This document shows positions 38,874-63,976 of a DNA stretch of 64,000 bases, in pieces. The stretch comes from Lunatimonas sp. (lineage in GTDB: Bacteria; Bacteroidota; Bacteroidia; Cytophagales; Cyclobacteriaceae): assembly GCA_035460985.1 (NCBI GenBank), contig DATHWC010000062.1, positions 6,792 to 70,791 on the forward strand, written 5' to 3'. The translations under genes were made by a program, and so were the position numbers. Under the pieces are notes generated by a model. It was not told where the DNA came from. It did no database searches and worked only from the letters and a program-made list of their open reading frames with translations. Position 1 is the first letter of the stretch. Every line of letters begins with the position of its first letter.

Positions 38874-38876
38874 TTC

Positions 38877-39750: not shown

Positions 39751-39821
39751 CACGGGCGGAGAGATTCGAACTCCCATCAACGGTTTTGGAGACCGCTATT
39801 CTGCCATTGAACTACGCCCGT
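39751..39821 (-). tRNA. tRNA-Trp(CCA)
   Basis: ACGGGCG/CGCCCGT acceptor stem, anticodon loop CT-CCA-AA and GTTCGAAT T-loop; 3' CCA not encoded. Confidence 0.95.
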
Positions 39822-39846
39822 AGTATACCTATTCTTTTACGGAACG

Positions 39847-39878
39847 CAAAATTAGGTAAAATTGTCATAAGAAACAAA
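39847..39878 (-). promoter_or_regulatory. Sigma-A promoter for tRNA-Trp-secE-nusG
   Basis: TTTG (39878-39875), a 20-nt spacer and TAATTTTG (39854-39847). Confidence 0.65.
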
Positions 39879-39910
39879 TGCGATTCCGAAAATTTCAGAA
39901 TCGCATTTGT
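39874..39910 (-). terminator. Hairpin after tuf
   Basis: ACAAATGCGATTC-11 nt-GAATCGCATTTGT; weak U-tract. Confidence 0.65.
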
Positions 39911-39931
39911 AAATCTATATCTGGAATATGA

Positions 39932-41119
39932 TTAGTCCAAGATCTCAGTCACCTGACCGGCACCTACTGTCCTGCCACCCTCCCGGATTGCAAATCGTAG
40001 TCCCTTCTCAAGAGCAACTGTACTCAACAAATTCACTTCGATTGTAACGTTATCACCTGGCATTACCATCTCCACATTTTCAGGAAGCGTGATTTCGCCG
40101 GTTACGTCTGTCGTTCTTAGGTAGAACTGGGGACGGTATCTGTTGAAAAAAGGAGTATGACGTCCACCTTCTTCTTTTGAAAGCACGTACACTTCAGCTT
40201 TGAAGTGAGCGTGGGGCTTCACAGATCCGGGCTTGCAGATAATCATACCTCGTCTGATTTGCGATTTTTCGATGCCTCTAAGCAACAAACCTACGTTGTC
40301 ACCGGCTTCACCTCTATCCAAAATCTTACGGAACATTTCCACACCAGTGACGGTTGATTTCAAACCTTCCGCACCCATACCGATGATATCTACCGCCTCA
40401 CCGGAATTGACTACACCTCTTTCGATTCTACCGGTAGCAACAGTACCACGTCCAGTAATGGAGAATACGTCTTCTACAGGCATTAAGAAATCCTTGTCGA
40501 TTGCTCTTTCAGGAAGAGGAATGTGCTCATCGACAGCATCCATCAATTCCATTACGGTAGCTTCCCACTTGTCTTCACCGTTAAGTGCTCCAAGGGCAGA
40601 ACCCGCGATAACTGGAATATTGTCTCCATCAAACTCATAGAAAGAAAGTAACTCTCTTACTTCCATCTCAACAAGTTCCAGAAGTTCTGGATCATCCACC
40701 AAATCGACTTTGTTCATGAAAACCACCAAAGCAGGAACACCTACCTGGCGGGCCAACAGAATGTGCTCTCTAGTCTGAGGCATTGGTCCATCAGTCGCCG
40801 CAACTACCAAGATAGCACCGTCCATTTGGGCGGCACCCGTAACCATGTTTTTTACATAATCAGCGTGACCTGGACAGTCAACGTGTGCGTAGTGTCTCTT
40901 TTCTGTCTGATACTCTACGTGTGAAGTATTGATGGTAATACCTCTTTCTTTTTCTTCCGGAGCGTTGTCGATAGAAGCGAAGTCTCTTAATTCAGAAAGA
41001 CCTTTCCTTGCCAATACCGTAGTAATGGCAGCAGTCAAAGTAGTCTTTCCATGATCGACGTGACCAATCGTACCTATGTTAACGTGTGGTTTGGAACGGT
41101 CAAAGGTTGCTTTTGCCAT
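39932..41119 (-). CDS. tuf: Elongation factor Tu
   Basis: [26 protein letters not shown] and [10 protein letters not shown] motifs. Confidence 0.99.
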
Positions 41120-47431: not shown

Positions 47432-50077
47432 TTATTCCCCCGAGCCAACATGGATAAAGGTCGCTATCCCGAAACGTGGCCCTGAGTGGACATATGCTCC
47501 GTTTTCAAACCCTGCCGCAAATTCAACACGGAAAATACGCCATAAATTATCCAAAGAATACCCAACCTCCATATAATGGGGAGAGCGGTCAGCTTTGAGG
47601 TAATTGAAAAAGATATTTTCCCGGACCCCCGTGAAACGTAACATGGGCAACTGGGTAAATAAAAATTTTCTGAACTGGTAGTGAAAAATTCCGCCCAAAT
47701 AGTTACCATCCGTACTATATCGGTAGTAATCAAGCAGTCGATATTCCGAAGCTGCTCCCATACTGGTAAAAATAGTCCGATTGCCTCCAAAGTGTTTAAA
47801 ATCCATAAAATACACCCGAGAGGAATTCAGAAAAGAACCGGCGGTCAAGTTAAAATCCAATTTGCCACTTACCCCAAAGGAAAATGCATGTCGAAAATTA
47901 GCTTCCAATTGGTCAAATCGCGAAGACTGATGGGCCGATGCAACTGGAATGCCTTTTTGATAAGAAATCGTCAAATGAGGGGCAGTGCTGTATAATGGAG
48001 ATTTTCTGTAGTTGCGGATACTGTATTTTAAACCAGGCCTCCACGAAACTTGTGATCTCCATAGGTATAATCGGTGGTTAGAGAAATTACTGTTGGTGGC
48101 TGAAATATTCTCGGGCCGATTGGAGGTAAAACTTCTTTGATCACCCTCTCTGAAGCTGTAGTTGCTTGTGTTCTCCAAGAAGTTTCTTTCTGCATACTCT
48201 AATCCAGATCCAAAGGCCAAACCTGGACTGACTTGTCTTTCGAAATCCACCCGCAGGTACCGCTGCTCATAGAGCTTCATCCAATTTTGATTAAGTAATA
48301 GAGTGTAGGCACTATTCACCCACTCCGATATGGGTTCCTTTCTGTTTAGTTGAAAAATAAACCGTCCACCTTCCGCCGAAAGCTGGGTGTGCGATCCTTC
48401 ATTTCTAATCAAACCTGTGACAGCAAGCCTACCGTAGAGGGTCTTATTGGACAACCCGTATCTTCCCTCAGGCCGGATTAGCACCTGTTTTGTTCGGAAA
48501 TTGACACTGTCCGCCAATTTTTCCCTTTTCCTATACCTCATGTATCCGGCCATACCGAATTTAAATCCCTCCACGGAGTTGAATCCCATTTTGCCAGCAT
48601 TATTATAAAAACCCGAGGAAAATCCTCTGCCGAAAAAATAGTCTCCCCCGCCCAGCACGTCCACTACTTGAAATTTCTTGTTGATGCTTGTATCCATGCT
48701 ATCTGGAACAGATTCTTTCGCCGATTCCACTCTGGCAAGACTGTCATCCCGGCGATACCCCCGGATTTCCTCAGACGTCAAGGCAACCGGCCGTATGCTG
48801 TCCCAAAAGTTTAATTCCCGTTTCGTGGCTAGACTATCTACCGCATATTTTCTCTCGCGAACGACCTCATTGTTTTCCCTTTCCGTTTCAACTTGCTTTT
48901 CATAGGTGCGGACCATTTTCCGAAAGGATTTTTGTGACATTTGTTCTGCTGCAGCCAGCTGTTCTGTCACTGATTCCCGTTTGTCAAATCCGGAAAGATC
49001 GGCGGGTAAATCCTCTACTTTTTCATCTAATAGGACTGTTTCCGCTATCAAGTCTGGATTTAGTTCCAGCACATACTCACCTGTTGAAGCCAAATATTGA
49101 AATTCCCCTCCAAAGCCGAAAAACTTTCCGCTGACTTGGTAGGTGTGGGTGACTGGCATCCAGACGTTTTCAACAATCGGAGCAAACTGTTGCTTTGCGG
49201 TAATTTGAAATCCCAAATAGGATGTCTTCAAATCGAAGCTGTGTATAGCCCACGAATCCTCTATAATATACAGATAGCCATCAAAGACACGTTCTCCTGG
49301 AGATCTAGGCCTCACTCTGATTTTATTTACCAACACGCCATTGTCCATAAAAGACCCCATAAATTGGAATCGGTAATAGGAAAAAGCCATTTTGGACAAA
49401 GGGGATATAATGTCCACTACCTTGTCCTGATAAAACGTCGCCGCTATATAAGGAGACGGGGACGTTTGCATGTCTTCTCCAACGGTTCGTATGGCGATTA
49501 CTTTTTCCTCTAGGTAATTCGGTTGCCTGAAGGTAATTTCAGAAATCGACTCCGTAGTGTAGGCTTCATTCAGGTTCAAGCCCTCTTCTGCCAATTTCTT
49601 ACGAACAAAAAAAGGAGCGTTCGTCAGTTTACCTGTACCTTTTAAATACACCTTCATCGAATAGCTGTCTACTTGTAGGCGGTGATAATCGGATTTGGCA
49701 ATTGCCCTGCGCATCACGGTTAATGCGGGATCTTCCTGTTTGCTATCCACCGTAACTTCCCTCAACGCATACATTTGTTCCTTGAGGACAACATCTACCT
49801 CCACCCAAGTCTGGTCTATTTCCACTGTTGTCAGAACGGATTCGTATCCCATAAACTGAATCCACATATCATAAACTCCCGGCTTCAAATTCAGTTGAAA
49901 ATAACCATCAGCATTTGAAGGAATCCCATCTCCCAAATTTCTGATAAAAATGGAGGCAAAAGGCAAGGGGTTGCCCCCCTCATCACGCACGTAGCCTCTG
50001 ACTCCTTGTGCGAAAGTTTCCAGCTCCGAGAAAATTATCAAATACAAAAGAATCAAAAACTTAATCCGCATTCCCAA
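47432..50077 (-). CDS. DUF5686-like outer-membrane protein with N-terminal carboxypeptidase-regulatory-like domain
   Basis: Signal peptide; VRGYVRDEGGNPLPFASI N-domain; DPALTVMRRAIAK linker; beta-rich C-terminal half. Family assigned from recalled architecture. Confidence 0.7.
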   Translation of the reverse strand: MGMRIKFLILLYLIIFSELETFAQGVRGYVRDEGGNPLPFASIFIRNLGDGIPSNADGYFQLNLKPGVYDMWIQFMGYESVLTTVEIDQTWVEVDVVLKEQMYALREVTVDSKQEDPALTVMRRAIAKSDYHRLQVDSYSMKVYLKGTGKLTNAPFFVRKKLAEEGLNLNEAYTTESISEITFRQPNYLEEKVIAIRTVGEDMQTSPSPYIAATFYQDKVVDIISPLSKMAFSYYRFQFMGSFMDNGVLVNKIRVRPRSPGERVFDGYLYIIEDSWAIHSFDLKTSYLGFQITAKQQFAPIVENVWMPVTHTYQVSGKFFGFGGEFQYLASTGEYVLELNPDLIAETVLLDEKVEDLPADLSGFDKRESVTEQLAAAEQMSQKSFRKMVRTYEKQVETERENNEVVRERKYAVDSLATKRELNFWDSIRPVALTSEEIRGYRRDDSLARVESAKESVPDSMDTSINKKFQVVDVLGGGDYFFGRGFSSGFYNNAGKMGFNSVEGFKFGMAGYMRYRKREKLADSVNFRTKQVLIRPEGRYGLSNKTLYGRLAVTGLIRNEGSHTQLSAEGGRFIFQLNRKEPISEWVNSAYTLLLNQNWMKLYEQRYLRVDFERQVSPGLAFGSGLEYAERNFLENTSNYSFREGDQRSFTSNRPENISATNSNFSNHRLYLWRSQVSWRPGLKYSIRNYRKSPLYSTAPHLTISYQKGIPVASAHQSSRFDQLEANFRHAFSFGVSGKLDFNLTAGSFLNSSRVYFMDFKHFGGNRTIFTSMGAASEYRLLDYYRYSTDGNYLGGIFHYQFRKFLFTQLPMLRFTGVRENIFFNYLKADRSPHYMEVGYSLDNLWRIFRVEFAAGFENGAYVHSGPRFGIATFIHVGSGE

Positions 50078-50495
50078 TTGATTTTTTTGATTGTTTTAAA
50101 TACCCAAATTACCTGCCATCACATTACTACTCCGAAAATCACAATTACTAACGGTTCCTAAGACAAAAAGTAACTACATCCAGCAATTAATTTAAACCTA
50201 ATTTTTTAGGGTAATATTTTCTGATATTTCCTCCAAAAATATGCCGTTTTTTGTACTTTTTTTAAAAACTACAAATTTAACAGAATGATAATAATCAGAT
50301 CGGTCCATTGTGTAAATAATAACTATAATTAACTTATTTTAACATATCAATAAAATTACCTCAAAAATTCACCTCCTAATTATTTAATCAGAAATTTCTA
50401 CCGAGTTTTAGGAATTGCATAAAATAAATATTCCTCACATATTTAACGTGTTATTTTAACAATCATTAATTTTAATACCTAAAATCAAAAAAAGT

Positions 50496-53400
50496 ATGCA
50501 AAACTATTTACCCAAAACAACACTGTTTTTGTTGGGATTGGCACTGCTTCTGGCATTCCCCCTAACAATGCAGGCCCAAACCAGGGAGGTAACGGGTACC
50601 GTATCTTCGGGAGAGGATAATCTAACTCTTCCTGGTGTATCTGTGCTCGTTAAAGGTACCACAAGAGGTGGTGTCACTGACATTGACGGAAACTACCGAG
50701 TTTCACTACAGCCTGGAGACAACGTCCTGGTATTTTCTTTTGTGGGATTCGCTCCATTAGAAAGAGAAGTAGGCAATCAATCCACGATCGATGTGACTTT
50801 AATGCCTGACATGCAGTCATTAAGTGAGGTAATCGTAGTAGGTTATGGTGAACAAAGGAAAGAGACCATCACCGGATCAGTAGCTACTGTAAAAGGAGCC
50901 GATCTAGTGAAATCTCCCGCCATGAACCTGACTAACTCCATTGCTGGCCGTATGGCGGGAGTTATCGCAGTAAACCGAAGCGGTGAACCGGGTTATGATG
51001 GCGCCGGTATCCGTATCCGGGGTTCCAACACCTTGGGAAACAACGATGCACTCATCGTTATAGACGGTATCCCTGCAAGAGCGGGTGGTATTGATCGATT
51101 AAATCCAAACGACATCGAGACCATTTCCGTATTGAAGGATGCGTCAGCTGCAATTTATGGTGCCAGAGCTGCAAACGGCGTAATCTTGGTAACCACGAAA
51201 AGAGGGAAATCCGGCAAACCAGAATTAAGTTATCAATTCAATCAGGGCTTTGCCCAACCTACTGTTATACCTAAATTGGCCGATGCGGCACAATACGGAG
51301 AAATGCTCAATGACCTTCACGTCTATGAGTTGCCTGTAGGTGAATGGCGTGGTGCCACTGATGCATATCGGGCTACCGGTACCTACACCCGTCCCGACGG
51401 ACAAGTTAGAACTGCACCTTTCAGCCCCAATGCGCTTGAGATGCACCGTGCTGGCACAGACCCTTGGAATTACCCCAATACTGACTGGTATGGAGAAACG
51501 CTTAAGACTTGGTCTCCGCAGACCCGACACAATTTGCAGTTAAACGGTGGAAATGAAGACATCCGTTATTTGGCTTCCTTGGGATACCAAAATCAGGATG
51601 CCTACTACAAAAATTCGGCAACAGGGTTTAAACAATACGACATGCGCTTAAACGTGGATGCGAAGGTCAATGAATTTATAGACCTTCAAATTGGTGTGTT
51701 GGCAAGACAGGAAGCCCGGTTTTTCCCAACTAGACCTGCGGGAGCCATCTTTAGAATGCAAATGCGGGGCAAGCCTCATGAGCCAGCTTTTTGGCCTGAC
51801 GGCAGACCGGGACCGGATATCGAAAATGGCGAAAACCCCGTTGTTATCACCACGAATGCAACCGGATACGATAGAGATACCAGAGATTATTTCCAAACCA
51901 ATGGAGCATTGAACATCAAAATTCCGGGAGTAGAAGGCTTGAAATTTCAGGGTACAGCATCGGTTGATAAATTAAGCCAATTCAACAAAAGGTGGGAAAC
52001 ACCTTGGATCCTATATCAGCGGGGAAGCGGTTTTGAAGCTGATGGAACTACACCAATTTTAGTTCCTAGTGAAAGAGGTCCAGCGGAGCCCCGTTTAAGA
52101 CAATCCAACAACAACCAGTTGAATATCCTCCTAGGCGGGGTCTTTACTTACGAAAAGAAAATTAACGACCACGAATTCAACATCTTGGCAGGTGTAAACA
52201 AAGAGACGGTAGATGGAGATAACTTCTTTGCCTATAGAAGATTCTTTATCTCCCCAGCCATTGATCAGATGTTTGCAGGTGGTGATGCTGAAAAGGATAA
52301 CGGCGGTGGAGCATTTGAAAGAGCCCGTCTTAACTATTTCGGTAGGGTTGCTTACAACTACAAAGATAAATACCTCTTTGAATTTTTGTGGAGAAATGAC
52401 GGATCCTATATTTTCCCGGAACAGACCCGTTTTGGATTCTTCCCTGGAGTCATGGGCGGATGGGTTGTCTCGGAGGAAGACTTCTGGAAAAACAATGTCC
52501 CTGTAATGGATTTCTTCAAAGTACGAGGTTCTTGGGGACAGATGGGTAATGATCAGATTTTCTTTGGAGGAGCATTACAAGAATACCAATTCCTTTCTAC
52601 TTATGGGTTTAGAAGCCATATTTTGGAAAATAACGAGGCCAAGACGCTGTTTGAAACCAGAGTACCCAACAATGCCATCACCTGGGAAGTGGCTAACAAT
52701 TCCAACATTGGTGTAGAAGGCTCCTTGTTTGAGGGGAAAGTTTTCTTCGAATTGGATTACTTCTACAACAAAAGAACGAATATTCTTTGGAGAAAAAATG
52801 CTTCAGTACCTGAATCAAGTGGTCTGGCAGCATTATTGCCTGCCGAAAACATCGGAGAGGTTGAAAACAAAGGGTTTGACTTCAATGTTGGATACAGGGG
52901 TCAAAAAGGAGATTTGCAATACAGCATCAGTGCCAACGGTGGCTATGCTTACAACAGAATCCTTTTCTGGGATGAGCCTCCGGGAGCACCGGATTGGCAG
53001 CGGTCTACCGGATTGCCTATGAATACACCTGCCCCGGTTTATTTATATGACGGAGTGTTTGCTACACAAGAACAAATCGCTTCAGAATCCTTGGATTATT
53101 CCGCAATTACTAACCAACTTCGTCCAGGAGATATGCGATTCAAAGACGTCAATGGTGATGGTCAGATTACACCATTGGACCGGGTAAGAATGGACCGAAA
53201 TAATATTCCGAGATTTCAGGGAGGTGTCAATATGAATGCCCAATGGAGAAATTTTGACCTTTCCGTATTGTTTCAAGGAGCCGCAGGTGCTATTGCACTC
53301 GTTTCTTTGGGTGAATCAGGAAATATTGGAAACTACCTGTTGGAATTTTATGAAAACCGCTGGACCATCGACAATCCAAGTACGGAATATCCTAGAATTG

Positions 53401-53672
53401 CCAATAGAAGCGATCAGTATTACTCTGGAGGAAATGATTTCTGGTACAGAAGTTCGGACTATATTCGCCTTAAAAACCTAGAATTGGGTTATACAATACC
53501 ATCTCAGTGGGGAGAGCGGTTTGGCATGAGTAATTTAAGAGTCTACGTTAACGGGTTGAACCTTTTAACTTGGGACAAATTGAAGGTTTACGATCCTGAA
53601 TCTGACAATTCAACAGGTCAGTACTATCCACAGGCACGTGTCATCAACGGCGGCGTATCCGTTTCTTTCTAA
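50496..53672 (+). CDS. SusC/RagA-family TonB-dependent transporter
   Basis: CarboxypepD_reg-like N-domain; plug motif DIETISVLKDASAAIYGARAANGVILVTTKRG; C-terminal YYPQARVINGGVSVSF. Confidence 0.97.
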   Translation: MQNYLPKTTLFLLGLALLLAFPLTMQAQTREVTGTVSSGEDNLTLPGVSVLVKGTTRGGVTDIDGNYRVSLQPGDNVLVFSFVGFAPLEREVGNQSTIDVTLMPDMQSLSEVIVVGYGEQRKETITGSVATVKGADLVKSPAMNLTNSIAGRMAGVIAVNRSGEPGYDGAGIRIRGSNTLGNNDALIVIDGIPARAGGIDRLNPNDIETISVLKDASAAIYGARAANGVILVTTKRGKSGKPELSYQFNQGFAQPTVIPKLADAAQYGEMLNDLHVYELPVGEWRGATDAYRATGTYTRPDGQVRTAPFSPNALEMHRAGTDPWNYPNTDWYGETLKTWSPQTRHNLQLNGGNEDIRYLASLGYQNQDAYYKNSATGFKQYDMRLNVDAKVNEFIDLQIGVLARQEARFFPTRPAGAIFRMQMRGKPHEPAFWPDGRPGPDIENGENPVVITTNATGYDRDTRDYFQTNGALNIKIPGVEGLKFQGTASVDKLSQFNKRWETPWILYQRGSGFEADGTTPILVPSERGPAEPRLRQSNNNQLNILLGGVFTYEKKINDHEFNILAGVNKETVDGDNFFAYRRFFISPAIDQMFAGGDAEKDNGGGAFERARLNYFGRVAYNYKDKYLFEFLWRNDGSYIFPEQTRFGFFPGVMGGWVVSEEDFWKNNVPVMDFFKVRGSWGQMGNDQIFFGGALQEYQFLSTYGFRSHILENNEAKTLFETRVPNNAITWEVANNSNIGVEGSLFEGKVFFELDYFYNKRTNILWRKNASVPESSGLAALLPAENIGEVENKGFDFNVGYRGQKGDLQYSISANGGYAYNRILFWDEPPGAPDWQRSTGLPMNTPAPVYLYDGVFATQEQIASESLDYSAITNQLRPGDMRFKDVNGDGQITPLDRVRMDRNNIPRFQGGVNMNAQWRNFDLSVLFQGAAGAIALVSLGESGNIGNYLLEFYENRWTIDNPSTEYPRIANRSDQYYSGGNDFWYRSSDYIRLKNLELGYTIPSQWGERFGMSNLRVYVNGLNLLTWDKLKVYDPESDNSTGQYYPQARVINGGVSVSF

Positions 53673-53682
53673 ATCCCAAAAT

Positions 53683-55548
53683 ATGAAACACATGAAAAAA
53701 AGAATAAACTATATATGGGTAGGGTTGTTTGGCGTACTGCTGACGACTTCATGCAACGACGAGTTTCTAAATACCCAACCACTAGGTCAAGTTTCCGAAG
53801 CCGCAGTTTGGCGAGATGCTGGATTGGCCGAGGCTTTCGTGACAGACATTTATGGAGGCCTCGAACAAGGTGGATTCGCAGAGCAGGCATTAGCCTCACT
53901 GACAGACGAAGCCATCTTCACCCATCCAGGCCGAAATATAAACGTGGTGACAGAAGCGCGATCTAACCCGGAGGCCACCGGATGGATTGACGGAACAAGA
54001 GGTTGGTCAAATATGTATAGCCGACTACGAAGTGCAAACATAGCGATTGAGAACCTGAGTGATCCCCAATTTGAAAATACCGGGGGTATTGTAGATCGCT
54101 TACTGGGTGAGGCTACCTTTATGCGGGCCTATTTTCATCAGCAATTGTTGAGAAACTTCGGGGGCATTCCTATAGCTGACAGACCGTTTACGTTAGACGA
54201 AGAAACCTATGAAATCCCAAGAAATACCTATGAAGAGGTAGTGGCGTTTATCCTTCAAGACCTGGATAGAGCGGCACAACTGTTGGAGGGGAAAAGTATG
54301 GTTCGTGGCCGTGCAAATCAAGTAGCTGCCTTGGCATTAAAATCAAGAGTACTGATTTATGCGGCTAGCGATTTACACGACATGCCCACAGCTTCTGGCA
54401 AGTCAAGTGTTATTTCTTCCTATCAGAATAAGGAATTGATAGGATACACTACAGGAAGCAGGACTGAAAGACTTCAGCAGGCAAAAGCAGCTGCAAAGGC
54501 AGTACTCGATATTGCTGATGGAAACATGCTAAACCTTACTGAACCACTTCCACATGCAGAAGCCGTTCAAGTGTACGAAAACAATTCGTTATCAAGAAAC
54601 GGTGGTGAAGCTGAAATGATTTTTGGAAGGTATTTTCTTTCGCAGAAACCAGAAGCTGGAGGTCGGCAAGGCTTGTTCAATGGACCAAACGGGTATAATA
54701 ACTGGGCAGGGAATACTCCTGTTCAATTGATAATTGACGATTATGCCATGATGGATGGAACCCCTTTTGACTGGAATAATCCGGAACATGAGAAAGCTCC
54801 CTATACCGATAGGGAAGCACGATTCTATTCTACATTCCTTTTTGACGGAGCACAGTGGAAACCGCGTTCTCCAGCCAACCAAGCAAGAGATCCATTGGGT
54901 CAAATCCAAACAGGACGGTATGAAGTGACCAATTCCGCAGGGCAAAAGGTAACCCATTTTGGATTGGATACCCGAAACAGTCCCATTGAAGACTGGAACG
55001 GAAGCTATACTGGCTATTACATCCGCAAGTTTATAGAACCAGATCCAAACTTTGTTGATCAGAATACCTGGCAGGAAATCCCATGGCCAAACATCCGGTT
55101 TACGGAAGTGGTGTTTAACTATGCGGAAGCTTGTATATTCCTTGGAGAAGATGAAGAGGCTAGAACATGGCTCAACAAAATTCGATTCAGAGCAGGGCTT
55201 CCAGCATTGACACAATCTGGTGAAGATCTCAAAATGGCGTTTATCAATGAAAAACGTAAGGAAATGGTTCACGAAGAGCAACGTTACTATGATGCCAGAA
55301 GGTGGATGATTGCTCCACAGACTTTTGGTAGGCAAGCAAACGGAATCAGCATTGTCGGAACCCTAAAGCCGGGACAGACAAATTCCTTATACAGGTATGA
55401 TCCGGATATTTATGATTACTCCTACGAGGTATTCGACATTGACCCAGGTAAAGAAAACAGGCTTTGGCTGGACAAAATGTACTGGATGCCTATCAGCTTT
55501 GCTGAAACACAACGAAATGATAACCTGATACAGAATCCAGGGTATTAA
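53683..55548 (+). CDS. SusD/RagB-family surface lipoprotein
   Basis: Lipobox TTSC-NDEFL; EATFMRAYFHQQLLRNFGGIP, RFTEVVFNYAEA and QNPGY motifs. Start corrected from 53638 to 53683 (or 53692). Confidence 0.96.
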   Translation: MKHMKKRINYIWVGLFGVLLTTSCNDEFLNTQPLGQVSEAAVWRDAGLAEAFVTDIYGGLEQGGFAEQALASLTDEAIFTHPGRNINVVTEARSNPEATGWIDGTRGWSNMYSRLRSANIAIENLSDPQFENTGGIVDRLLGEATFMRAYFHQQLLRNFGGIPIADRPFTLDEETYEIPRNTYEEVVAFILQDLDRAAQLLEGKSMVRGRANQVAALALKSRVLIYAASDLHDMPTASGKSSVISSYQNKELIGYTTGSRTERLQQAKAAAKAVLDIADGNMLNLTEPLPHAEAVQVYENNSLSRNGGEAEMIFGRYFLSQKPEAGGRQGLFNGPNGYNNWAGNTPVQLIIDDYAMMDGTPFDWNNPEHEKAPYTDREARFYSTFLFDGAQWKPRSPANQARDPLGQIQTGRYEVTNSAGQKVTHFGLDTRNSPIEDWNGSYTGYYIRKFIEPDPNFVDQNTWQEIPWPNIRFTEVVFNYAEACIFLGEDEEARTWLNKIRFRAGLPALTQSGEDLKMAFINEKRKEMVHEEQRYYDARRWMIAPQTFGRQANGISIVGTLKPGQTNSLYRYDPDIYDYSYEVFDIDPGKENRLWLDKMYWMPISFAETQRNDNLIQNPGY

Positions 55549-55572
55549 TTTCTAAAGGCTTTAATTACTGAG

Positions 55573-55603
55573 AAAAGGGTTGCCAAGTATGGCAACCCTT
55601 TTT
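55573..55603 (+). terminator. Intrinsic terminator after susD
   Basis: AAAAGGGTTGCCA-AGTA-TGGCAACCCTTTT followed by a long T-tract. Confidence 0.9.
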
Positions 55604-55761
55604 TGTTTTTGCTTATTATGAACGTATATTACTAATCAGGCTGATGTATTTTCCCCACTCAAGGTTCATCCTGTATGTTATCTCTATTTTCCTGGTATCT
55701 GTCAGAAATGTAAAATCAATAGCAATCAGGCGAATAGGTCATAACCTATTCGATAAATTTA

Positions 55762-55769
55762 TATATTTG
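55762..55769 (+). promoter_or_regulatory. Sigma-A -7 element for the FG-GAP/haloperoxidase genes
   Basis: TATATTTG, 21 bp upstream of the ATG at 55791; no -33 TTTG. Confidence 0.5.
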
Positions 55770-55790
55770 AACCCGTAATATTTATTTTCT

Positions 55791-58700
55791 ATGCCATTGT
55801 CTCTTAAAGCTTCCTTCGTCTTTCTCTTGGTGGGTATCCTAATACTGCCCAATTGTGGTCCAAAGGAAACCTCCAAATCTCCCCTACCTCAAGATCCGCC
55901 GCTTTTTACCCTTCTTTCTGGGAATGAAACTGGGATAACGTTTGAGAACACGCTTACAGAGGGATTAAACACCAATATTCTGATGTATGAGTATTTTTAC
56001 AACGGGGGAGGCGTAGCCGTAGGAGACCTGAATGGGGATGGTCTGGATGACATTTATTTTACTGGCAATATGGTTGACAATGCCCTTTACCTAAATAAAG
56101 GCAACATGCAATTCGAAGACATTACCCAGCAGGCGGGAGTCGCTGGCCGTCAAGGGCCATGGACCACCGGTGTCACCATGGCCGACGTTAATGGGGATGG
56201 ATTGTTGGATATCTATGTGTGCAACTCAGGTAGCTTACCCCCGGATAAAAGGAAAAATCAACTGTTCATTAATCAAGGAGTTAATGCCCAAGGCATTCCC
56301 ACTTTTGTGGAGGAAGCTGAAAAGTACGGGATAGACAGTGATGCCACCAGTACCCATGCGGTATTTTTCGATTTTGACAATGACGGTGACCTGGATCTTT
56401 TTCTGCTTAACCACAACCCCAAATCCCTCCCTGTGCTGGATGAGTCCATTACTGCGGAACTTTTGAAGAAACCGGATACAGCAGGGCCGCAACTGTTTCG
56501 AAATGATGGTGGGATTTTCACCGAAATCACCCCAGAAGCCGGCATACAGCAATCAGCTCTATCCTACGGTTTAGGTGCGGGGGTCGCAGACATAAACGGG
56601 AACGGCTTTATGGATATCTACATCAGCAACGACTATACGGCACCGGATTTTCTATACATCAACAATGGGGATGGAACCTTTACGGACATCATTCAGGAAG
56701 CCATGGGGCATATTTCCAATTTCTCCATGGGCAACGACATAGCTGATATCAATAATGACGGTCTGGTGGACGTATTTACACTGGACATGCTACCAGAAGG
56801 CAATGCTCGCCAAAAACTTTTAATGGCTCCGGATAACTATGAGAAATTTGACTTTAACCTGCGGGTAGGTTTCCATCATCAATACATGCGAAACATGCTC
56901 CATCTTAATCATGGAAACGGAACATTTAGCGAAATCGGTCAGCTGGCAGGGATCTCGAATACTGACTGGAGCTGGGCGGCGCTCTTTGCGGATTTTGACA
57001 ATGACGGCTGGAAAGACCTATACATAACCAACGGATATCACCGGGACTATACCAACATGGATTTTTTGAAATACATGTCTGATTTCCTCAAAAACAACCA
57101 AGGCCTTCGAAGGGAAAACGTACTCGATCTGGTATACCAGATGCCTTCATCGAATGTAGTCAACTACGCCTTCCAAAACACCGGCGGCATTACCTTTGAC
57201 GACCGCACAAAATCCTGGGGCCTTCATCATGTAGCCAATAGCAACGGGGCAGCTTATTCGGACCTGGACAACGATGGTGACCTGGACTTAATAGTCAACA
57301 ACGTCAGTCACCCAGCATTCATCTATCGAAATGATGCCAACGTAATTAATCCCAACAATTTTCTAAAAATCCAGCTTGCAGGCAGTAGGCAAAATACGCA
57401 TGGGTTAGGAGCAAAAATTACAGCTCACCAAGGGGAAGGAATGCAGTTTCTAGAACAAATGCCAAGTCGGGGATATCAATCCAGTGTATCTCCCACCCTA
57501 CATTTGGGAATGGGAAAAGCCTCAAAAGTAGATTCACTTTTCGTTGAATGGCTTGGGGGTAAAACCCAAGTATTATACGATGTGCCAGCTAACCAAACCC
57601 TAAATTTGTCGGAGTCAAATGCCTCCCAAGACCGACTTACCAGAAATGCCATTATTCCTCTATTCAAACCAGTAAGCACTCCAATACAAAACGCCCAGCC
57701 ACCCAATACCTTTAATGATTTCAAACGACAACCCCTAATGGTCAACCCCCTCTCCTTCTCGGGCCCTGCCATGGCCAAAGGAGACGTAAATGGCGATGGT
57801 TTATTCGATGTTTATGTTGGTGGGGATGCGGGGAATCCGGGGAAATTATATGTACAGCATGCCGGAGGTTCTTTTCGGGAAGCAACCGTTTCCGCATTTG
57901 TCACGGATCAGGAATCGGCGGATACAAAAGCCGTTTTTGTGGACTTGAATGGGGATGGGAATCTGGACCTATATGTTGGTAGCGGGGGTTATGGAGATTT
58001 TCTTCCGGCGGATGAACGACTTCAGGACAGAGTGTACATGAACGACGGGACGGGTAATTTCAGCAAATCCCAAAATGCATTACCTACAATGCTTACCAGC
58101 ACTGGAGCTGTAGCCTTTGCGGATTTTACGGGAGACGGTGCTCCCGATATTTTTGTCGGAAGCCGGGTGATACCTGGAAGGTATCCAGAAGTCCCGCCCA
58201 GCTATATGCTGGTGAACGATGGTCAGGGAAATTTCTCAAACGAAACACAAAAATGGGCTCCAGCCTTTAACTCCCTAGGTTTGGTGACTGATGCAGAGTG
58301 GGTGGACCTTAATGGAAATGACATACCGGAATTAATTGTGGTGGGAGAATGGATGCCGATTTCCGTTTGGGGAAAAACTAACAACTCATTTACGAATGTC
58401 ACCGAAAATTATTTCGAAACAGAATATAGCGGCTGGTGGAATAGCCTTACAGTGGCAGACATCAACGGAGATGGAAAGGCAGACTTGATCGTGGGAAATC
58501 ACGGAAGAAACACTCAAGTCAAAGCTAGTCAGGATGAGCCTGCGGAAATGTATTTCAAAGATTTTGACAATAATGGGGCTGTGGATCCCATCCTCTGCTT
58601 TTACATTCAAGGGAAGAGCTATCCATATGTTACTAGGGATGAGCTTTTAGACCAAATCTCGTTCATGCGAACCCGGTTCAGGAATTATTCCGACTATGCG

Positions 58701-59129
58701 AACCTGTCCATTTCTGAAATATTTACTCCCCAAGAAATGAAAGATGCAGGTTACCTAAAGGCTAACATGTTGGAAACTGCTTACTTCGAATCCCAGGCAA
58801 GTGGGTTATTTCAGCTAAAACCATTGCCCATCGAAGCACAATCATCGCCGGTGTTTTCCGTTTTGGTGATCGATGCCGATGGAGACGGACATCTGGACCT
58901 TCTTCTGGGAGGAAATATTCAGCGGGCAAGGTTACGTTTTGGTAAATATGATGCTAACTTTGGCATATTATTAAAAGGTGATGGTAAAGGCGGATTCACC
59001 TATGTCCCACAACGGAAATCCGGATTTAATATTCAAGGCGATATCCGCAGCATGCTATCCTTTGAGGATACAATCCTTTTCGGAATCAATCAGGTAGGTG
59101 TTGTTGCCTTTGAGAAAAATCAAAAATAG
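55791..59129 (+). CDS. FG-GAP/VCBS-repeat, ASPIC/UnbV-domain (CRTAC1-like) lipoprotein
   Basis: Probable lipobox (LPNC); 14 DxNGDG/DxDNDG-type repeats in two groups of 7, flanking an FLKIQLAG...GLGAKI...LHLGMG...VEW ASPIC/UnbV segment. Confidence 0.9.
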   Translation: MPLSLKASFVFLLVGILILPNCGPKETSKSPLPQDPPLFTLLSGNETGITFENTLTEGLNTNILMYEYFYNGGGVAVGDLNGDGLDDIYFTGNMVDNALYLNKGNMQFEDITQQAGVAGRQGPWTTGVTMADVNGDGLLDIYVCNSGSLPPDKRKNQLFINQGVNAQGIPTFVEEAEKYGIDSDATSTHAVFFDFDNDGDLDLFLLNHNPKSLPVLDESITAELLKKPDTAGPQLFRNDGGIFTEITPEAGIQQSALSYGLGAGVADINGNGFMDIYISNDYTAPDFLYINNGDGTFTDIIQEAMGHISNFSMGNDIADINNDGLVDVFTLDMLPEGNARQKLLMAPDNYEKFDFNLRVGFHHQYMRNMLHLNHGNGTFSEIGQLAGISNTDWSWAALFADFDNDGWKDLYITNGYHRDYTNMDFLKYMSDFLKNNQGLRRENVLDLVYQMPSSNVVNYAFQNTGGITFDDRTKSWGLHHVANSNGAAYSDLDNDGDLDLIVNNVSHPAFIYRNDANVINPNNFLKIQLAGSRQNTHGLGAKITAHQGEGMQFLEQMPSRGYQSSVSPTLHLGMGKASKVDSLFVEWLGGKTQVLYDVPANQTLNLSESNASQDRLTRNAIIPLFKPVSTPIQNAQPPNTFNDFKRQPLMVNPLSFSGPAMAKGDVNGDGLFDVYVGGDAGNPGKLYVQHAGGSFREATVSAFVTDQESADTKAVFVDLNGDGNLDLYVGSGGYGDFLPADERLQDRVYMNDGTGNFSKSQNALPTMLTSTGAVAFADFTGDGAPDIFVGSRVIPGRYPEVPPSYMLVNDGQGNFSNETQKWAPAFNSLGLVTDAEWVDLNGNDIPELIVVGEWMPISVWGKTNNSFTNVTENYFETEYSGWWNSLTVADINGDGKADLIVGNHGRNTQVKASQDEPAEMYFKDFDNNGAVDPILCFYIQGKSYPYVTRDELLDQISFMRTRFRNYSDYANLSISEIFTPQEMKDAGYLKANMLETAYFESQASGLFQLKPLPIEAQSSPVFSVLVIDADGDGHLDLLLGGNIQRARLRFGKYDANFGILLKGDGKGGFTYVPQRKSGFNIQGDIRSMLSFEDTILFGINQVGVVAFEKNQK

Positions 59130-60539
59130 ATGACAGTCAGCTCTATAAGAAACATTCTATTTTCAGACATAAGAACCTCTTCAACATTTAAACTAGCAAC
59201 GTTTGTTGTCTGTTTGATGGTTGCGTCTTCCTGTCAAACAGCAGGTTCGGACAAAGCTAAGGTATTGGGGCCGGAATTAATTGGATGGGTCACTGAATCG
59301 ATGACAGATATCATGGTGCATGACATTACCAATCCTCCGCTGGCCGCTAGGTTCTATGCCTATGCCACTCTGGCGGGATACGAGACCCTCAGCCAAGAAA
59401 ATCCAGAGATACTTAGTTTCCACGGCGTCCTAAATGATTATCCTGAAATAAAAGTCTCAGGAGATTTTCCCTACCACAACCCCCATGTAAGTGCGGTGCT
59501 TGCAATGATTGAGACCGCCGCATCCATGCAGCCCTCCGGTCAGGATTTGCATCAATTAAAAGATTCCTTTTTGGATTCCTGCCGACAATGGGGTTTTTCC
59601 GAGCGAACGATTGAGGATGCAATGGGGTATGGAAAAGAGGTAAGCTCAGGGATACTCGCGTATGCACAGCAAGACCTTTATAAGAATATCAGCAATTACC
59701 CCAGATACACACCTAAGCAGGAGGACGGATATTGGTACCCTACTCCACCCGCATATTTTGCTCCGGTAGAACCGTATTTTAATTCGATACGTCCATTTAC
59801 ACTTGTACAGCCAGATCAGTTCAAGCCAAAGCCTCCGGTAACATTTTCGACTTCCTCGGATTCAGAGTTTTATAAACTCATGCAAGAGGTGTATGAAGTT
59901 GAGTTGACAAAAGAACAGCGGGAAATTGCCGCTTTCTGGGACTGTAATCCGTTTGCATTGGAGGAGACCGGTCATCTGATGGTTGGGTTAAAACAGATTT
60001 CGCCTGGCGGGCATTGGATGGGGATTACCAATATTGCCTGCACAGATGCAAATCTTAGTTTTGAACAGTCAATGGAAATTACAGCCGCTGTGGCGATTGG
60101 ACTTACTGACGGCTTTCTAAGTTGCTGGGATGAAAAATACCGCAGCAACCGGATTCGACCTGAAACAGCCATCCGCAAATACATCGACACATCCTATAGG
60201 CCTTTATTACAAACGCCACCTTTTCCGGAGTATTTAAGTGGCCACTCTACCATTTCTACCACGGCCGCTACGATATTGACCCATTACTTTGGCGACAACT
60301 TCTCTTATACAGATACCGTAGAAGAAAAATATCAGCTTCCAAGCAGGGATTTTACCTCCTTTCTTCAAGCTTCTGAAGAAGCCAGTATTTCCCGCTTGTA
60401 TGGCGGCATTCATTTCATGGATGCCATTGTAGAAGGTCAGAAACAGGGAAAACTCGTTGGAAATTGGGTTATCCAAACGTTGGAAAGCTCAGGACTGGCC
60501 AGTCCGCTGTCCTTATCATCCCTGTCGATCAACGAATAG
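59130..60539 (+). CDS. Vanadium-dependent haloperoxidase family (PAP2 superfamily) lipoprotein, copy 1
   Basis: KYRSNRIRP (K-x6-RP), PPFPEYLSGHS and SRLYGGIHF vanadate-site motifs; lipobox ASSC. Confidence 0.88.
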   Translation: MTVSSIRNILFSDIRTSSTFKLATFVVCLMVASSCQTAGSDKAKVLGPELIGWVTESMTDIMVHDITNPPLAARFYAYATLAGYETLSQENPEILSFHGVLNDYPEIKVSGDFPYHNPHVSAVLAMIETAASMQPSGQDLHQLKDSFLDSCRQWGFSERTIEDAMGYGKEVSSGILAYAQQDLYKNISNYPRYTPKQEDGYWYPTPPAYFAPVEPYFNSIRPFTLVQPDQFKPKPPVTFSTSSDSEFYKLMQEVYEVELTKEQREIAAFWDCNPFALEETGHLMVGLKQISPGGHWMGITNIACTDANLSFEQSMEITAAVAIGLTDGFLSCWDEKYRSNRIRPETAIRKYIDTSYRPLLQTPPFPEYLSGHSTISTTAATILTHYFGDNFSYTDTVEEKYQLPSRDFTSFLQASEEASISRLYGGIHFMDAIVEGQKQGKLVGNWVIQTLESSGLASPLSLSSLSINE

Positions 60540-60570
60540 GATGCCACTCATCACCTGGAAGTAACTTATA

Positions 60571-61917
60571 ATGAATAGAATATCTTTAACCTTACTATTT
60601 CTTGTCAGTTGGTTGGGGGCCTGTTCCCCCGAGGAGAATTATCAGGGTTTTTTAGAATCCAGCGAGCCACTTGTGCAGGCCAACGATCAACTGACGGATG
60701 CAATGGTTCACGATATTTTTTCACCACCAGTTGCCAGTAGAATTTATGCCTATACTTCCTTGGCTCCTTTTGAGGTTGCCGCATTTGCAGACAGTGTTAA
60801 CATCCAATCCCTGATGGGGCAGCTGAATGGCTTTGAACAAAAAGATTTCTCCTCTCGGTCAGATGTTTATTTTCCGATGGCAGCAATGGTGGCGTTCTAT
60901 CACGTTTCCGCCAAGATGGTGTTCTCGGAAAATAGGATTACAGCCCACAGAGATGAATTCTATCGAAAGGTGAGAAACTTGGGAATGACGAAAAAAACAT
61001 TGGAGGCCTCTATTGAGTTCGGCGAAACAATGGGGCAGCATGTGCTTGATTATGCGTCAAACGACAACTATCACCAAAGTCGGTCTTTCGAAAAATACAC
61101 CCCACTAAATGACCCAAAATCATGGAAACCAACCCCTCCGGCGTACATGGAGGGGATAGAACCCAATTGGAACAAAATCAGACCTTTTGTACTGGACTCT
61201 GCCACCCAGTTTATCCCCCTACCACCTACTCCCTTTGACATAACACCTGAAAGTGTTTTTTATCAGGAAGCTAAAGCCGTAATGGACGCTGGGAATAATC
61301 TCGATGAAGAGGCGAGAGAGATAGCCTATTTTTGGGACTGCAATCCCTATAAAATGAATGTAAAAGGCCATGTGATGTACGCGGAGAAAAAGATAACTCC
61401 AGGTGGTCATTGGATAGGAATTGCGGGCATTTCATCCAAAACAGCCAACTTGGATTGGAAGGCAACATCCGAAGCGTTGGTAATGACAGCCATTGCGGTG
61501 TTTGACGGGTTTATTTCCTGTTGGGATGAGAAGTATCGGAGCATTCTTATCCGCCCAGAAACTTATATCAATCTTTACATGGACGAGGATTGGGTACCCT
61601 TATTGCAAACACCTCCTTTTCCAGAACACACAAGTGGTCATAGTGTTATTTCCACTGCCGCTTCCAGGATACTAACAGACTTGCTGGGAGAGCCTTTCCA
61701 TTTTGTAGATTCCACGGAAGTCAAGTTTGGATTGGGTATTAGGGAATTTGACTCATTCAATGAAGCTGCCGCTGAGGCAGCCATAAGCCGTTTTTACGGT
61801 GGAATTCATTACATTCCGGCCATTGATTTCGGAATAGAACAGGGGGAAGAGGTGGCACGTCACTTGCTTTCCAGGATTAAAACCAGAAAAACACCCTCAC
61901 CCCTAGCTTTCGATTAA
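60571..61917 (+). CDS. Vanadium-dependent haloperoxidase family lipoprotein, copy 2
   Basis: KYRSILIRP, PPFPEHTSGHS and SRFYGGIHY motifs; lipobox LGAC. Confidence 0.88.
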   Translation: MNRISLTLLFLVSWLGACSPEENYQGFLESSEPLVQANDQLTDAMVHDIFSPPVASRIYAYTSLAPFEVAAFADSVNIQSLMGQLNGFEQKDFSSRSDVYFPMAAMVAFYHVSAKMVFSENRITAHRDEFYRKVRNLGMTKKTLEASIEFGETMGQHVLDYASNDNYHQSRSFEKYTPLNDPKSWKPTPPAYMEGIEPNWNKIRPFVLDSATQFIPLPPTPFDITPESVFYQEAKAVMDAGNNLDEEAREIAYFWDCNPYKMNVKGHVMYAEKKITPGGHWIGIAGISSKTANLDWKATSEALVMTAIAVFDGFISCWDEKYRSILIRPETYINLYMDEDWVPLLQTPPFPEHTSGHSVISTAASRILTDLLGEPFHFVDSTEVKFGLGIREFDSFNEAAAEAAISRFYGGIHYIPAIDFGIEQGEEVARHLLSRIKTRKTPSPLAFD

Positions 61918-63385: not shown

Positions 63386-63976
63386 TTATTCTTCCTCTGT
63401 ATCATAGCCCATGTTCTGGGCATATGCTTTTAGTTTTTCTTTTAATAGGTTTCTTGCCCGGTGAAGTCTGGACCTGACTGTCCCTATTGGGATGTCAAGA
63501 ATCTTGGCCATTTCTTCATAGGTAAAACCTTCCAAGTCACATAGGATGATAACAGTCCTAAAATCCACCGCCAAGCTATTCAGTGCATTGGAGATCTCAT
63601 CACCCAACATATCCTTCACCGCATCAACCCGCAGATCAGAAGTCATATTGTAGTCAACATTATCTGAGTTGTAATAAGTTTCAACTTCTTGATAATCTAC
63701 CTTTGAAGGTTGCTTACTTTTTTTACGGTATTCATTGATGAAGCTATTCTTAAGAATCCGAAATAGCCATGCTTTGGCGTTTGTCCCTTTCTCAAATGAG
63801 TTGATAAATCGGTAGGCTTTCAGATAGGTGTCCTGCACCAAATCTTTGGCATCGTCTTCATCAAAGGTCAACCTATAGGCAAAATTGTACATAGAGTCTA
63901 TGTGCGGCATAAACTCCTGGTCAAATATGCTGTTTTTATCTTTATCCGAATATTTTTTTCGTTGTACCTCTGACAT
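63386..63976 (-). CDS. ECF sigma factor, SigH/SigR-like
   Basis: DAKDLVQDTYLKAYRF...GTNAKAWLFRILKNSFINEYRKK (region 2) and YEEMAKILDIPIGTVRSRLHRAR (region 4). Confidence 0.93.
   Translation of the reverse strand: MSEVQRKKYSDKDKNSIFDQEFMPHIDSMYNFAYRLTFDEDDAKDLVQDTYLKAYRFINSFEKGTNAKAWLFRILKNSFINEYRKKSKQPSKVDYQEVETYYNSDNVDYNMTSDLRVDAVKDMLGDEISNALNSLAVDFRTVIILCDLEGFTYEEMAKILDIPIGTVRSRLHRARNLLKEKLKAYAQNMGYDTEEE

Follow-up and report, generated by a model that had tools for sequence, protein, structure and literature searches.

Do the two vanadium haloperoxidase (VHPO)-type genes that stand behind a SusC/SusD importer in a Lunatimonas genome form an oxidative polysaccharide utilization locus (PUL) with it, or do they belong to a different unit? 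The genes lie at positions 50496-61917 of a 64,000-nucleotide stretch of DNA, here called the window (GenBank assembly GCA_035460985.1, contig DATHWC010000062.1, positions 6,792 to 70,791). The initial annotation had read them as a PUL free of carbohydrate-active enzymes (CAZymes) that comprises susC, susD, a gene for an FG-GAP/ASPIC-UnbV lipoprotein, and two haloperoxidase genes, named VHPO-A and VHPO-B here. Its account of the gene content stands: the open reading frame (ORF) list of the window has five long, co-oriented plus-strand ORFs at this place, and direct reading of the translated sequences finds a lipobox cysteine ending the signal peptide in four of the five proteins (LLTTSC followed by NDEF in SusD, ILPNC in the FG-GAP/ASPIC protein, VASSC in VHPO-A, and WLGAC followed by SPEEN in VHPO-B), the signal peptide of SusC being of the normal type I. 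A survey of related loci shows that the conserved unit is the FG-GAP/ASPIC lipoprotein together with the haloperoxidase, and that SusC/SusD is an optional add-on.

Two Haloperoxidase-Family Lipoproteins

Both PAP2-fold lipoproteins had been assigned to the vanadium haloperoxidase family, and this assignment, to a clade resembling Zg-VIPO1, is well supported by sequence comparison. A search of the PDB aligned VHPO-A (59130..60539, + strand, 469 amino acids [aa]) and VHPO-B (60571..61917, + strand, 448 aa) along their full length with 4CIT, the vanadium-dependent haloperoxidase of Zobellia (residues 21-451, E=3.3e-108, and residues 13-436, E=3.4e-130, respectively). VHPO-B is about 55% identical to Zg-VIPO1 itself, the vanadium-dependent iodoperoxidase of Zobellia galactanivorans (PDB 4CIT/4USZ; Fournier et al. 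2014, cited in PMC5064120). The other PDB matches at E≤1 were the vanadium haloperoxidase 9PTR and, for VHPO-B, a sucrose-phosphatase at chance level (E=0.56); no acid phosphatase was found at this threshold for either protein, and the nearest characterized relatives are not phosphatases. The domain scan of the two proteins in this analysis listed PAP2 only (PF01569; E=7.8e-12 for VHPO-A and E=4.3e-4, under the Pfam cut-off, for VHPO-B), and VCPO_2nd (PF22778) is among the precomputed matches of a protein identical to VHPO-B (P0001) and of both Lunatibacter orthologs. The vanadate-site residues, K321, R328, S355-G356-H357, R407, and H413 in VHPO-B numbering, comprise the Lys and Arg of KX6RP, the Ser-Gly-His, and the Arg and metal-binding His of SRX5H. 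They are invariant in both paralogs and 86 family sequences, as they were in an initial nine-sequence alignment.

The two copies differ in how closely they follow the family. VHPO-B is 50-71% identical to the haloperoxidase in the 80 loci of the survey described below and, to judge from these alignments, corresponds to Zg-VIPO1 and to the lone haloperoxidase gene that most relatives have. Constraint in the family is strong: across 82 sequences with an overall identity of about 50%, 117 alignment columns reach 95% conservation or more. VHPO-A departs at 21 of these 117 near-invariant columns, 16 of the 21 being the same replacement in all three VHPO-A orthologs, and forms a long branch in the family tree. 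A search of 1.84 billion representatives returned one full-length 50%-identity cluster above 50% identity to VHPO-A, which rules out a widespread separate subfamily. VHPO-A is thus a lineage-restricted, divergent extra copy, and its substrate access is probably altered.

A different view of the locus would make the PAP2 lipoproteins phosphatases that scavenge phosphate esters from a phosphorylated glycan, a glycolipid, or a glycerol-phosphate polymer, such as glucosylated teichoic or lipoteichoic acids, or from sugar phosphates; the FG-GAP/ASPIC protein would bind the polyanion via calcium and SusC/SusD would import the fragments. The PAP2 domain and the identical catalytic motifs agree with this, and in several database sources homologs go under the name "phosphatidic acid phosphatase" or "PAP2 family." Like class A/PAP2 acid phosphatases, VHPO-A and VHPO-B have the KX6RP, SGH, and SRX5H motifs and a helical core; unlike them, they are about twice as large, with the extra helical domain PF22778 and matches at E<1e-100 to a validated haloperoxidase. 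Class A acid phosphatases are small, about half the size of the window proteins, and the 448-469-aa two-bundle architecture with VCPO_2nd is of the haloperoxidase type. Moreover, the nearest characterized protein, which is about 55% identical and is encoded in the same type of operon, was deposited and described as a vanadium-dependent iodoperoxidase (PMC5064120), and a scan of the window saw no phosphodiesterase or phosphate-regulon genes at the locus. We consider phosphate-ester scavenging unlikely, and return to it with the sugar and glycerol genes.

Two unusual family members were also seen. P0375 (865 aa) has two tandem haloperoxidase-like stretches in one polypeptide, which recalls the adjacent copies of the window. 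P0373 (1294 aa), from an ENA metagenome contig of 7764 bases, joins an N-terminal haloperoxidase domain to a complete chitobiase/hexosaminidase of glycoside hydrolase (GH) family GH20; this fusion is a singleton cluster and a possible gene-calling artefact.

A Propeller Protein Paired with the Haloperoxidase

The gene immediately upstream of VHPO-A (55791..59129, + strand) encodes a CRTAC1-like, "VCBS repeat-containing" lipoprotein of 1112 aa in which the domain scan found nine FG-GAP_3 matches (E=2e-80) and UnbV_ASPIC at 72 bits (cut-off 23.4; E=3e-20). Its stop codon TAG directly abuts the ATG of VHPO-A (…AAA TAG ATG…, gap 0), and 31 bases separate VHPO-A from VHPO-B.

To learn what accompanies the haloperoxidase elsewhere, we scanned one genome per species with the haloperoxidase alignment, obtained 596 relatives, and took the best 80 loci with 10 kb flanks, annotating them by tblastn and iterative hidden Markov model searches seeded with the window proteins and Pfam-checked neighbors. 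Similar gene combinations had been expected in other Bacteroidota, and they proved widespread. Of the 80 loci, 53 have one, two, or three FG-GAP/ASPIC genes next to the haloperoxidase gene (41/53 among loci >15 kb). Such a gene is the immediate co-oriented upstream neighbor in half of the 64 loci with at least 3.5 kb of upstream sequence (32/64), and the distance from the last FG-GAP gene to the haloperoxidase shrinks to between -4 and +10 bases in the tightest loci. Most often the order is FG-GAP, a lipoprotein of about 195 aa, FG-GAP, FG-GAP, haloperoxidase. This small lipoprotein, present in about 24 of the 80 loci (e.g., L031:2475-3125 and L007) and without a Pfam or NCBIfam match, sits between the first and second FG-GAP/ASPIC genes, or in L007 between susD and FG-GAP, and is absent from the window.

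The pairing includes the one bacterial iodoperoxidase to have been characterized. Haloperoxidase from the Zobellia genomes is 100% identical to the 4CIT sequence as rebuilt from alignments, and in two Zobellia genomes the Zg-VIPO1 gene directly follows three FG-GAP/ASPIC genes (1107, 1119, and 1101 aa), only 1 to 8 bases lying between one gene and the next. Arenibacter and Flagellimonas have the same FG-GAP–iodoperoxidase layout, Arenibacter with two FG-GAP genes before the iodoperoxidase gene and an SGLT-type transporter gene beside them. Downstream of the Zobellia haloperoxidase gene come a GyrI-like gene and a 288-aa gene; upstream of the first FG-GAP gene are a divergent sodium:solute symporter (SSF) gene, imuB/dnaE2-like genes, and a GH2 gene. 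We rejected the SSF transporter as an iodide symporter, as it matched the Vibrio SGLT at E=3e-68 versus 2e-16 for the sodium/iodide symporter.

The Flavobacteriaceae loci share further genes on the downstream side. The iodoperoxidase gene is followed there (L082:21358-23162, L083:11359-13111, L084:11391-13107) by a gene of about 290-300 aa, with a GyrI-like Pfam match in Zobellia and Arenibacter and no Pfam match in Flagellimonas, and then by a conserved gene of about 285 aa. Further on in L082-L084 are a convergent gene for a Metallophos protein of about 1214-1241 aa and an HD plus PycTM gene. All of these are absent from the window.

The two components also occur as one polypeptide. The search of 1.84 billion representatives with VHPO-A returned a 1000-aa fusion from a Caldilineaceae (Chloroflexota) metagenome-assembled genome (MAG; MBX2999533.1) and a 555-aa fusion from a JGI metagenome that begins inside the FG-GAP/ASPIC part and is apparently cut off N-terminally. 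In both of these related, Caldilineaceae-type proteins, FG-GAP_3 repeats (six matches) and UnbV_ASPIC are connected via a Pro/Ala-rich linker to an intact haloperoxidase domain that has every motif, and the DNA of the 1000-aa one translates to the protein. Natural fusions of this Rosetta-stone kind, together with the operon data, argue for a joint function of the CRTAC1-like module and the haloperoxidase. The 1000-aa fusion gene stands alone on its contig, with no SusC/SusD or sugar gene beside it, and the pair can therefore presumably act without either.

What the propeller protein contributes was approached through its fold. An AlphaFold2 model built from a 32-sequence alignment (mean predicted local distance difference test score 74.9) shows a propeller at the N-terminus and, after the UnbV_ASPIC beta-sandwich (about residues 523-607), another beta-propeller. 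The sole specific Foldseek match in the PDB was murine CRTAC1 (9ETN; E=3e-28, template modeling [TM] score 0.72 normalized to CRTAC1); it spans the N-terminal half only, leaving the second propeller without a counterpart, and sequence searches agree with it at about 19% identity. The remaining Foldseek matches are generic multi-propeller scaffolds such as DDB1 and give no catalytic clue. Across the 32 aligned sequences the lipobox is conserved and many Dx[DN]xDG-type columns are invariant; columns of this type are predicted to bind calcium, which would make the propeller a calcium-binding one.

Relation of SusC/SusD to the Haloperoxidase Genes

The importer genes themselves are unambiguous. 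SusC (50496..53672, + strand, 1058 aa) is a SusC/RagA-family TonB-dependent outer-membrane transporter that scores 889 bits against TIGR04056 (cut-off 368) and carries the TIGR04057 SusC signature with Plug and CarboxypepD_reg domains; no STN N-terminal signaling domain was found by the domain scan. SusD (53683..55548, + strand) is a SusD-family lipoprotein with SusD_RagB (172 bits, E=3e-50) and SusD-like_3 (85 bits, E=1e-23) matches. The listed susD ORF begins at GTG 53638, inside susC; a more plausible start is the ATG at 53683 (MKHMKKRINYIWVGLFGVLLTTSC), 11 bases past the susC stop, which would give a standard lipoprotein signal and a protein of 621 aa. The adjacent susC-like and susD-like pair by which a PUL is recognized is thus present with an 11-base gap. 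The best PDB match of SusC is the SusC homolog 5T3R (E=2e-99), and the structure matches of SusC and SusD, all generic homologs, give no clue to the ligand.

The arrangement of all five genes is not due to chance, since it is conserved across genera: Lunatibacter salilacus, Pleomorphovibrio marinus, Negadavirga shengliensis, and a Cyclobacterium sp. have the identical gene order, followed by nadD and gmk, at 61-88% protein identity, and VHPO-B of the cultured L. salilacus is 90% identical to that of the window. The wider survey gave a less uniform picture. Co-occurrence of haloperoxidase and susCD, on which the reading of the initial annotation depends, is seen as a co-oriented arrangement in 12 loci and not in the Zobellia and Arenibacter loci; as a constant partner, SusC/SusD gives way to FG-GAP/ASPIC, found in 53 of the 80 loci as against 15 in which SusD is visible. 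We counted the SusC–SusD pair via SusD, as some jackhmmer "SusC" labels fell on DUF5686 proteins that share the CarboxypepD_reg domain. SusD lies upstream and co-oriented in 12 of the 15 loci (Cyclobacteriaceae, Marivirga, Flammeovirgaceae, Fulvivirga, and MAGs of other Cytophagales) and is divergent in three, all of them Saprospiraceae. In most of the remaining loci FG-GAP genes take up the 10 kb flank, and SusC/SusD cannot be judged there. There was no SusC/SusD within 10 kb upstream of the Zobellia operon, and none was seen in the roughly 3.4 kb upstream of the first Arenibacter FG-GAP gene, which holds the SSF transporter gene and a partial gene only.

Signals in the 242-base spacer between susD and the FG-GAP gene also speak against a single susCD–haloperoxidase unit. 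A terminator-like hairpin (55571..55612, + strand) begins 23 bases 3' of the susD stop and consists of a G+C-rich 15-pair stem with a 4-base loop, followed by a T run. A G+C-rich hairpin with a T run lies at the equivalent place in Pleomorphovibrio, Negadavirga, and Cyclobacterium, and their stem sequences differ; in these four genera including that of the window it is the structure, not its sequence, that is kept. Downstream of the hairpin, 22 bases before the FG-GAP start codon, is a candidate internal promoter, TATATTTG (55762..55769, + strand), which matches TAnnTTTG, the established Bacteroidota -7 promoter consensus; the 17-base string around it, ATTTATATATTTGAACC, is identical in Negadavirga. 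The terminator hairpin after susD and the promoter motif before FG-GAP argue for two units, susCD and a tightly packed FG-GAP–VHPO-A–VHPO-B operon, with separate or attenuated transcription and possible read-through of the kind that many PULs have. The AT-rich intergenic region 5' of susC (50078..50495, + strand, 24% G+C) is the presumed susCD promoter region; no exact TAnnTTTG motif was found in it, and its sigma-70-like matches are no commoner than in shuffled sequence.

It could then be asked whether the two parts are mere neighbors, that is, independent units at a variable chromosomal site, with SusC/SusD importing something unrelated. The terminator and internal promoter motif fit this, and so does the site itself. 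The DUF5686 gene marks a stable chromosomal site with varying cargo: between it and nadD-gmk there may be SusCD, the small lipoprotein, FG-GAP, and VHPO genes, or one to two FG-GAP genes and VHPO, as seen in loci L007, L010, L013, L017, and L018, and in L008 the VHPO gene directly follows DUF5686 without any FG-GAP gene, nadD-gmk not being found downstream. Between lineages SusC is only 24-38% identical, against 50-60% for the haloperoxidase, and SusC/SusD is not in the Flavobacteriaceae and Caldilineaceae versions read. On the other side, SusC-SusD stands directly upstream and co-oriented in at least 12 loci of several families, and adjacent but divergent in the three Saprospiraceae loci. Genuine PULs often have a terminator behind susD as a means of setting expression ratios, and the genes that come next usually code for surface binding proteins belonging to that system. 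We regard independence of the two units as rather unlikely.

Sugar and Glycerol Genes in Related Loci

The description of the locus as CAZyme-free holds for the window lineage: the domain scan found no glycoside hydrolase, lyase, sulfatase, or peptidase domains in the five proteins, and no CAZymes in the five genes or the window flanks. It does not hold for many relatives, which have GH37, GH65, and GH13 genes in the co-oriented string, and processing that is oxidative rather than hydrolytic, as first suggested, cannot be general, as relatives add a trehalase, a kojibiose hydrolase, transporters, and glycerol genes. A GH37 trehalase gene is present in 16 of the 80 loci and lies immediately downstream in 14 of 68 assessable ones, with stop/start overlap in six. 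GH65 enzymes of 671-681 aa, encoded in 10/80 loci, reach 1101 bits against the NCBI kojibiose hydrolase model NF053734 (cut-off 800). Both enzymes would act outside the cytoplasm, given the lipoprotein nature of the trehalases and the signal peptides of the GH65 proteins. Sugar transporters (SGLT-type in 13/80 loci, major facilitator superfamily in 8/80), cytoplasmic GH13 enzymes of the TreC/TreS type (16/80), a ROK kinase (12/80), and glpF/K/D, that is, a glycerol facilitator (9/80), glycerol kinase (13/80), and glycerol-3-phosphate dehydrogenase (12/80), complete the set, and other loci have an OtsA-OtsB fusion, two GH144-type genes with GH3, or GH16. In the wider family the module is thus tied to the use of alpha-glucosides (trehalose, kojibiose) and glycerol. 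The GH65 papers that we consulted for context do not discuss gene neighborhood.

These partners bear on the phosphate-ester scavenging introduced above, in which the kojibiose hydrolase, trehalase, and glpF/K/D of relatives would complete the breakdown of the polymer. The recurrent GH65, GH37, and glycerol genes yield glucose and glycerol, products that fit alpha-1,2-glucosylated glycerol-phosphate polymers, a teichoic acid structure, and the occurrence of the module in low-iodide habitats is likewise in its favor. Trehalose is not a teichoic acid component, however, and phosphatase chemistry is at odds with the nearest characterized relative and with the haloperoxidase-type architecture.

Three loci extend the range of neighboring sugar genes. 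After the haloperoxidase gene of an Algoriphagus (L021:11600-13774) comes a 724-aa fused trehalose-6-phosphate synthase/phosphatase (GT20 and Trehalose_PPase in Pfam), and a 724-aa ORF lies at the same position right after the haloperoxidase gene in the Algoriphagus locus L008; trehalose synthesis, besides breakdown, adjoins the haloperoxidase in L021. The glycan context of L066:3052-10994 differs from the trehalase/kojibiase one, the FG-GAP–haloperoxidase pair being followed there by a 7TMR-DISM sensor, two "putative glucoamylase" (PF10091) genes, and GH3; we take PF10091 to be a beta-1,2-glucanase family.

Proposed Function

We propose, with a probability of roughly 0.55, that the window encodes, downstream of an importer, an envelope-anchored unit that oxidizes halides and has a propeller protein as its dedicated partner. 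The haloperoxidases on the cell envelope would bind vanadate via the conserved His/Lys/Arg/Ser-Gly-His/Arg site and use H2O2 to oxidize iodide, or possibly bromide, to hypohalous acid, as the Zobellia enzyme does in vitro. The calcium-binding propeller would be their dedicated partner, most likely binding the target (a polymer, particle, or cell surface) or positioning the enzyme and so making the oxidation local. We favor a calcium-dependent binding or targeting subunit because propellers of the FG-GAP type bind ligands and because binding modules are frequent fusion partners of enzymes. SusC/SusD, placed upstream in Cytophagia-type genomes, would import the material that becomes available; in many relatives, periplasmic trehalase, kojibiose hydrolase, and sugar and glycerol catabolism would process this material, these genes being absent at the window locus. 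We infer the vanadate dependence, the halide, the role of the propeller, the surface versus periplasmic location, and the coupling to SusC/SusD from such comparisons.

Several points weigh against this proposal. The active-site residues are common to PAP2 phosphatases, and sequence cannot tell the two chemistries apart. Nor can halide scope be read from clustering, because a Rhodopirellula enzyme that clusters next to iodoperoxidases is a chloro/bromoperoxidase (PMC13519999). Foldseek gave no protein of known activity for the FG-GAP/ASPIC protein, so the role proposed for it is conjectural. The survey started from the haloperoxidase, and its counts run from haloperoxidase to FG-GAP/ASPIC neighbor only. 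No haloperoxidase model directly accounts for the alpha-glucosidase and glycerol gene partners, and the module is frequent in genomes from soil and fresh water, habitats poor in iodide. Finally, a run search matched the window sequence only in soil metagenome DNA runs and in no RNA run; for the Marivirga locus, too, no RNA run was found, and one raw-read run examined had zero reads.

Habitat also limits the possible roles. The lineages that have the module come, according to record titles, from soil, freshwater, wastewater or sludge, lakes, and the sea, and the window is found in soil metagenomes, so an algal-host-specific role, among those first suggested, is unlikely here.

The same enzymes could instead serve as an envelope antioxidant, consuming H2O2 with iodide as a recycled mediator and protecting the cell, not preparing nutrients; hypoiodous acid would be re-reduced by organic reductants, for example reducing sugars from the neighboring glycosidases. 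Removal of H2O2 by iodide recycling has been proposed for kelp, and the idea is modeled on that chemistry. The haloperoxidase identity, the anchoring of the enzymes as envelope lipoproteins, and the periplasmic glucose-releasing enzymes in the same operons would suit such a role. So would the Zobellia paralog vIPO3, which is up-regulated on the brown alga Ascophyllum nodosum, oxidative-stress responses being induced on fresh algae (PMC9296495). The large dedicated propeller partner and SusC/SusD are left unaccounted for, and the window scan found no oxidative-stress regulator or catalase gene at the locus. An antioxidant function is in our view distinctly unlikely, and local halide oxidation aided by the propeller partner remains the reading we prefer.

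Comparison with Known Systems

The closest known system is the Zg-VIPO1 operon, which shares with the window the lipoprotein signal, the active-site residues, and an FG-GAP/ASPIC gene immediately upstream with almost no intergenic space. It differs in having three FG-GAP/ASPIC genes, a single haloperoxidase gene, the GyrI-like and 288-aa genes, and the divergent SGLT-type symporter; the window combines a single FG-GAP/ASPIC gene and two haloperoxidase genes with SusC/SusD, and was obtained from a soil metagenome, not from an alga-associated marine bacterium. Canonical Sus-like PULs resemble the window in the SusC/SusD pair and in the lipoprotein genes that follow where binding proteins or enzymes usually sit, and the related loci resemble them in their periplasmic glycosidases, inner-membrane sugar transporters, and sugar kinase. 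Unlike canonical PULs, the window locus has no glycoside hydrolase, lyase, or esterase, no adjacent sensor or regulator, and a SusC without STN; a terminator and promoter motif follow susD, and the downstream enzymes are of oxidative type.

For the propeller protein the comparison is with the CRTAC1/ASPIC-UnbV family, whose members likewise have an FG-GAP calcium-binding propeller and then UnbV_ASPIC. The window protein is twice as long owing to its second propeller, is a lipoprotein, and has the low identity to CRTAC1 given above. We know of no ASPIC/UnbV family member with a known biochemical function. One homolog carries the JGI label "enediyne biosynthesis protein E4," and iodide is reported to be essential for the biosynthesis of anthraquinone-fused enediynes (PMC11069151); the label and the iodide form an unverified parallel.

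Arenibacter sp. C-21, studied by Amachi et al., offers a phenotype without an assigned gene. According to PMC5064120, its iodine uptake needs H2O2 (or glucose and O2) and calcium, it has five Zg-VIPO homologs, and a membrane haloperoxidase was postulated. C-21 is a flavobacterium, the Arenibacter genome read here is another than C-21, and the window organism is a soil Cyclobacteriaceae relative. The CRTAC1-like FG-GAP/ASPIC protein might be a functional subunit of bacterial iodoperoxidases, either a calcium-dependent generator of H2O2 from glycosidase-released sugars or a carrier or acceptor of oxidized iodine. We think this very unlikely. If true, the module would be a sugar-fueled hypoiodous-acid machine, would account for the glucose-, O2-, calcium-, and H2O2-dependent iodine uptake of Arenibacter, and would give the ASPIC/UnbV family, including human CRTAC1 and enediyne protein E4, its first biochemical function.

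The initial annotation knew of no functional characterization of the module, and none was found in the literature within our reach; nor did we find there an open-access account of the FG-GAP/ASPIC–haloperoxidase pairing or of the gene context of Zg-VIPO1, key subscription papers lying outside this coverage for both. The enzymes are new members of a known family. What the comparison adds is that the haloperoxidase is paired with FG-GAP/ASPIC and in some proteins fused to it, that in Cytophagia the pair stands behind SusC/SusD, and that it is tied to trehalase, kojibiose hydrolase, and glycerol genes. Iodoperoxidases have so far been studied as isolated enzymes, and here they are often paired with a large propeller protein (53 of the 80 loci); the case for a partnership rests on the pairing across Bacteroidota classes, the fusion in Chloroflexota, and the location of Zg-VIPO1 in such an operon. 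The "haloperoxidase PUL" is thereby replaced by a concrete two-component hypothesis that bears on microbial iodine cycling and on ASPIC/UnbV function, and a second, unexpected lead is that genes for trehalase, kojibiose hydrolase, and glycerol catabolism recur beside the module.

Genomic Surroundings

The cluster is flanked by housekeeping genes, with DUF5686, pyrH-like, and frr genes upstream and nadD-like, gmk, and extracytoplasmic function (ECF) sigma factor genes downstream. The DUF5686 gene (47432-50077, - strand), divergent from susC, encodes 881 aa with an N-terminal CarboxypepD_reg domain, and an ortholog also borders the haloperoxidase locus in Algoriphagus (L008, L009). An M1 peptidase gene lies about 6 kb upstream of the cluster.

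No dedicated sensor or regulator of the hybrid two-component, SusR-like, or ECF/anti-sigma type adjoins the susCD locus in the window. The ECF-type sigma factor gene (63386-63976, - strand) lies 1.4 kb downstream of the cluster and is kept at the same place in Lunatibacter (L085). It is unlikely to regulate the cluster, as nadD and gmk intervene, no anti-sigma gene is seen beside it in the window, and SusC is without STN.

Two minus-strand ORFs of 1291 and 1450 aa at 28356-36595, presumed from their size to be rpoB/rpoC, and an EF-Tu gene (39932-41119, - strand; Pfam match) are also present in the window (24837-41119), so the chromosomal region around the cluster appears to be core rather than accessory.

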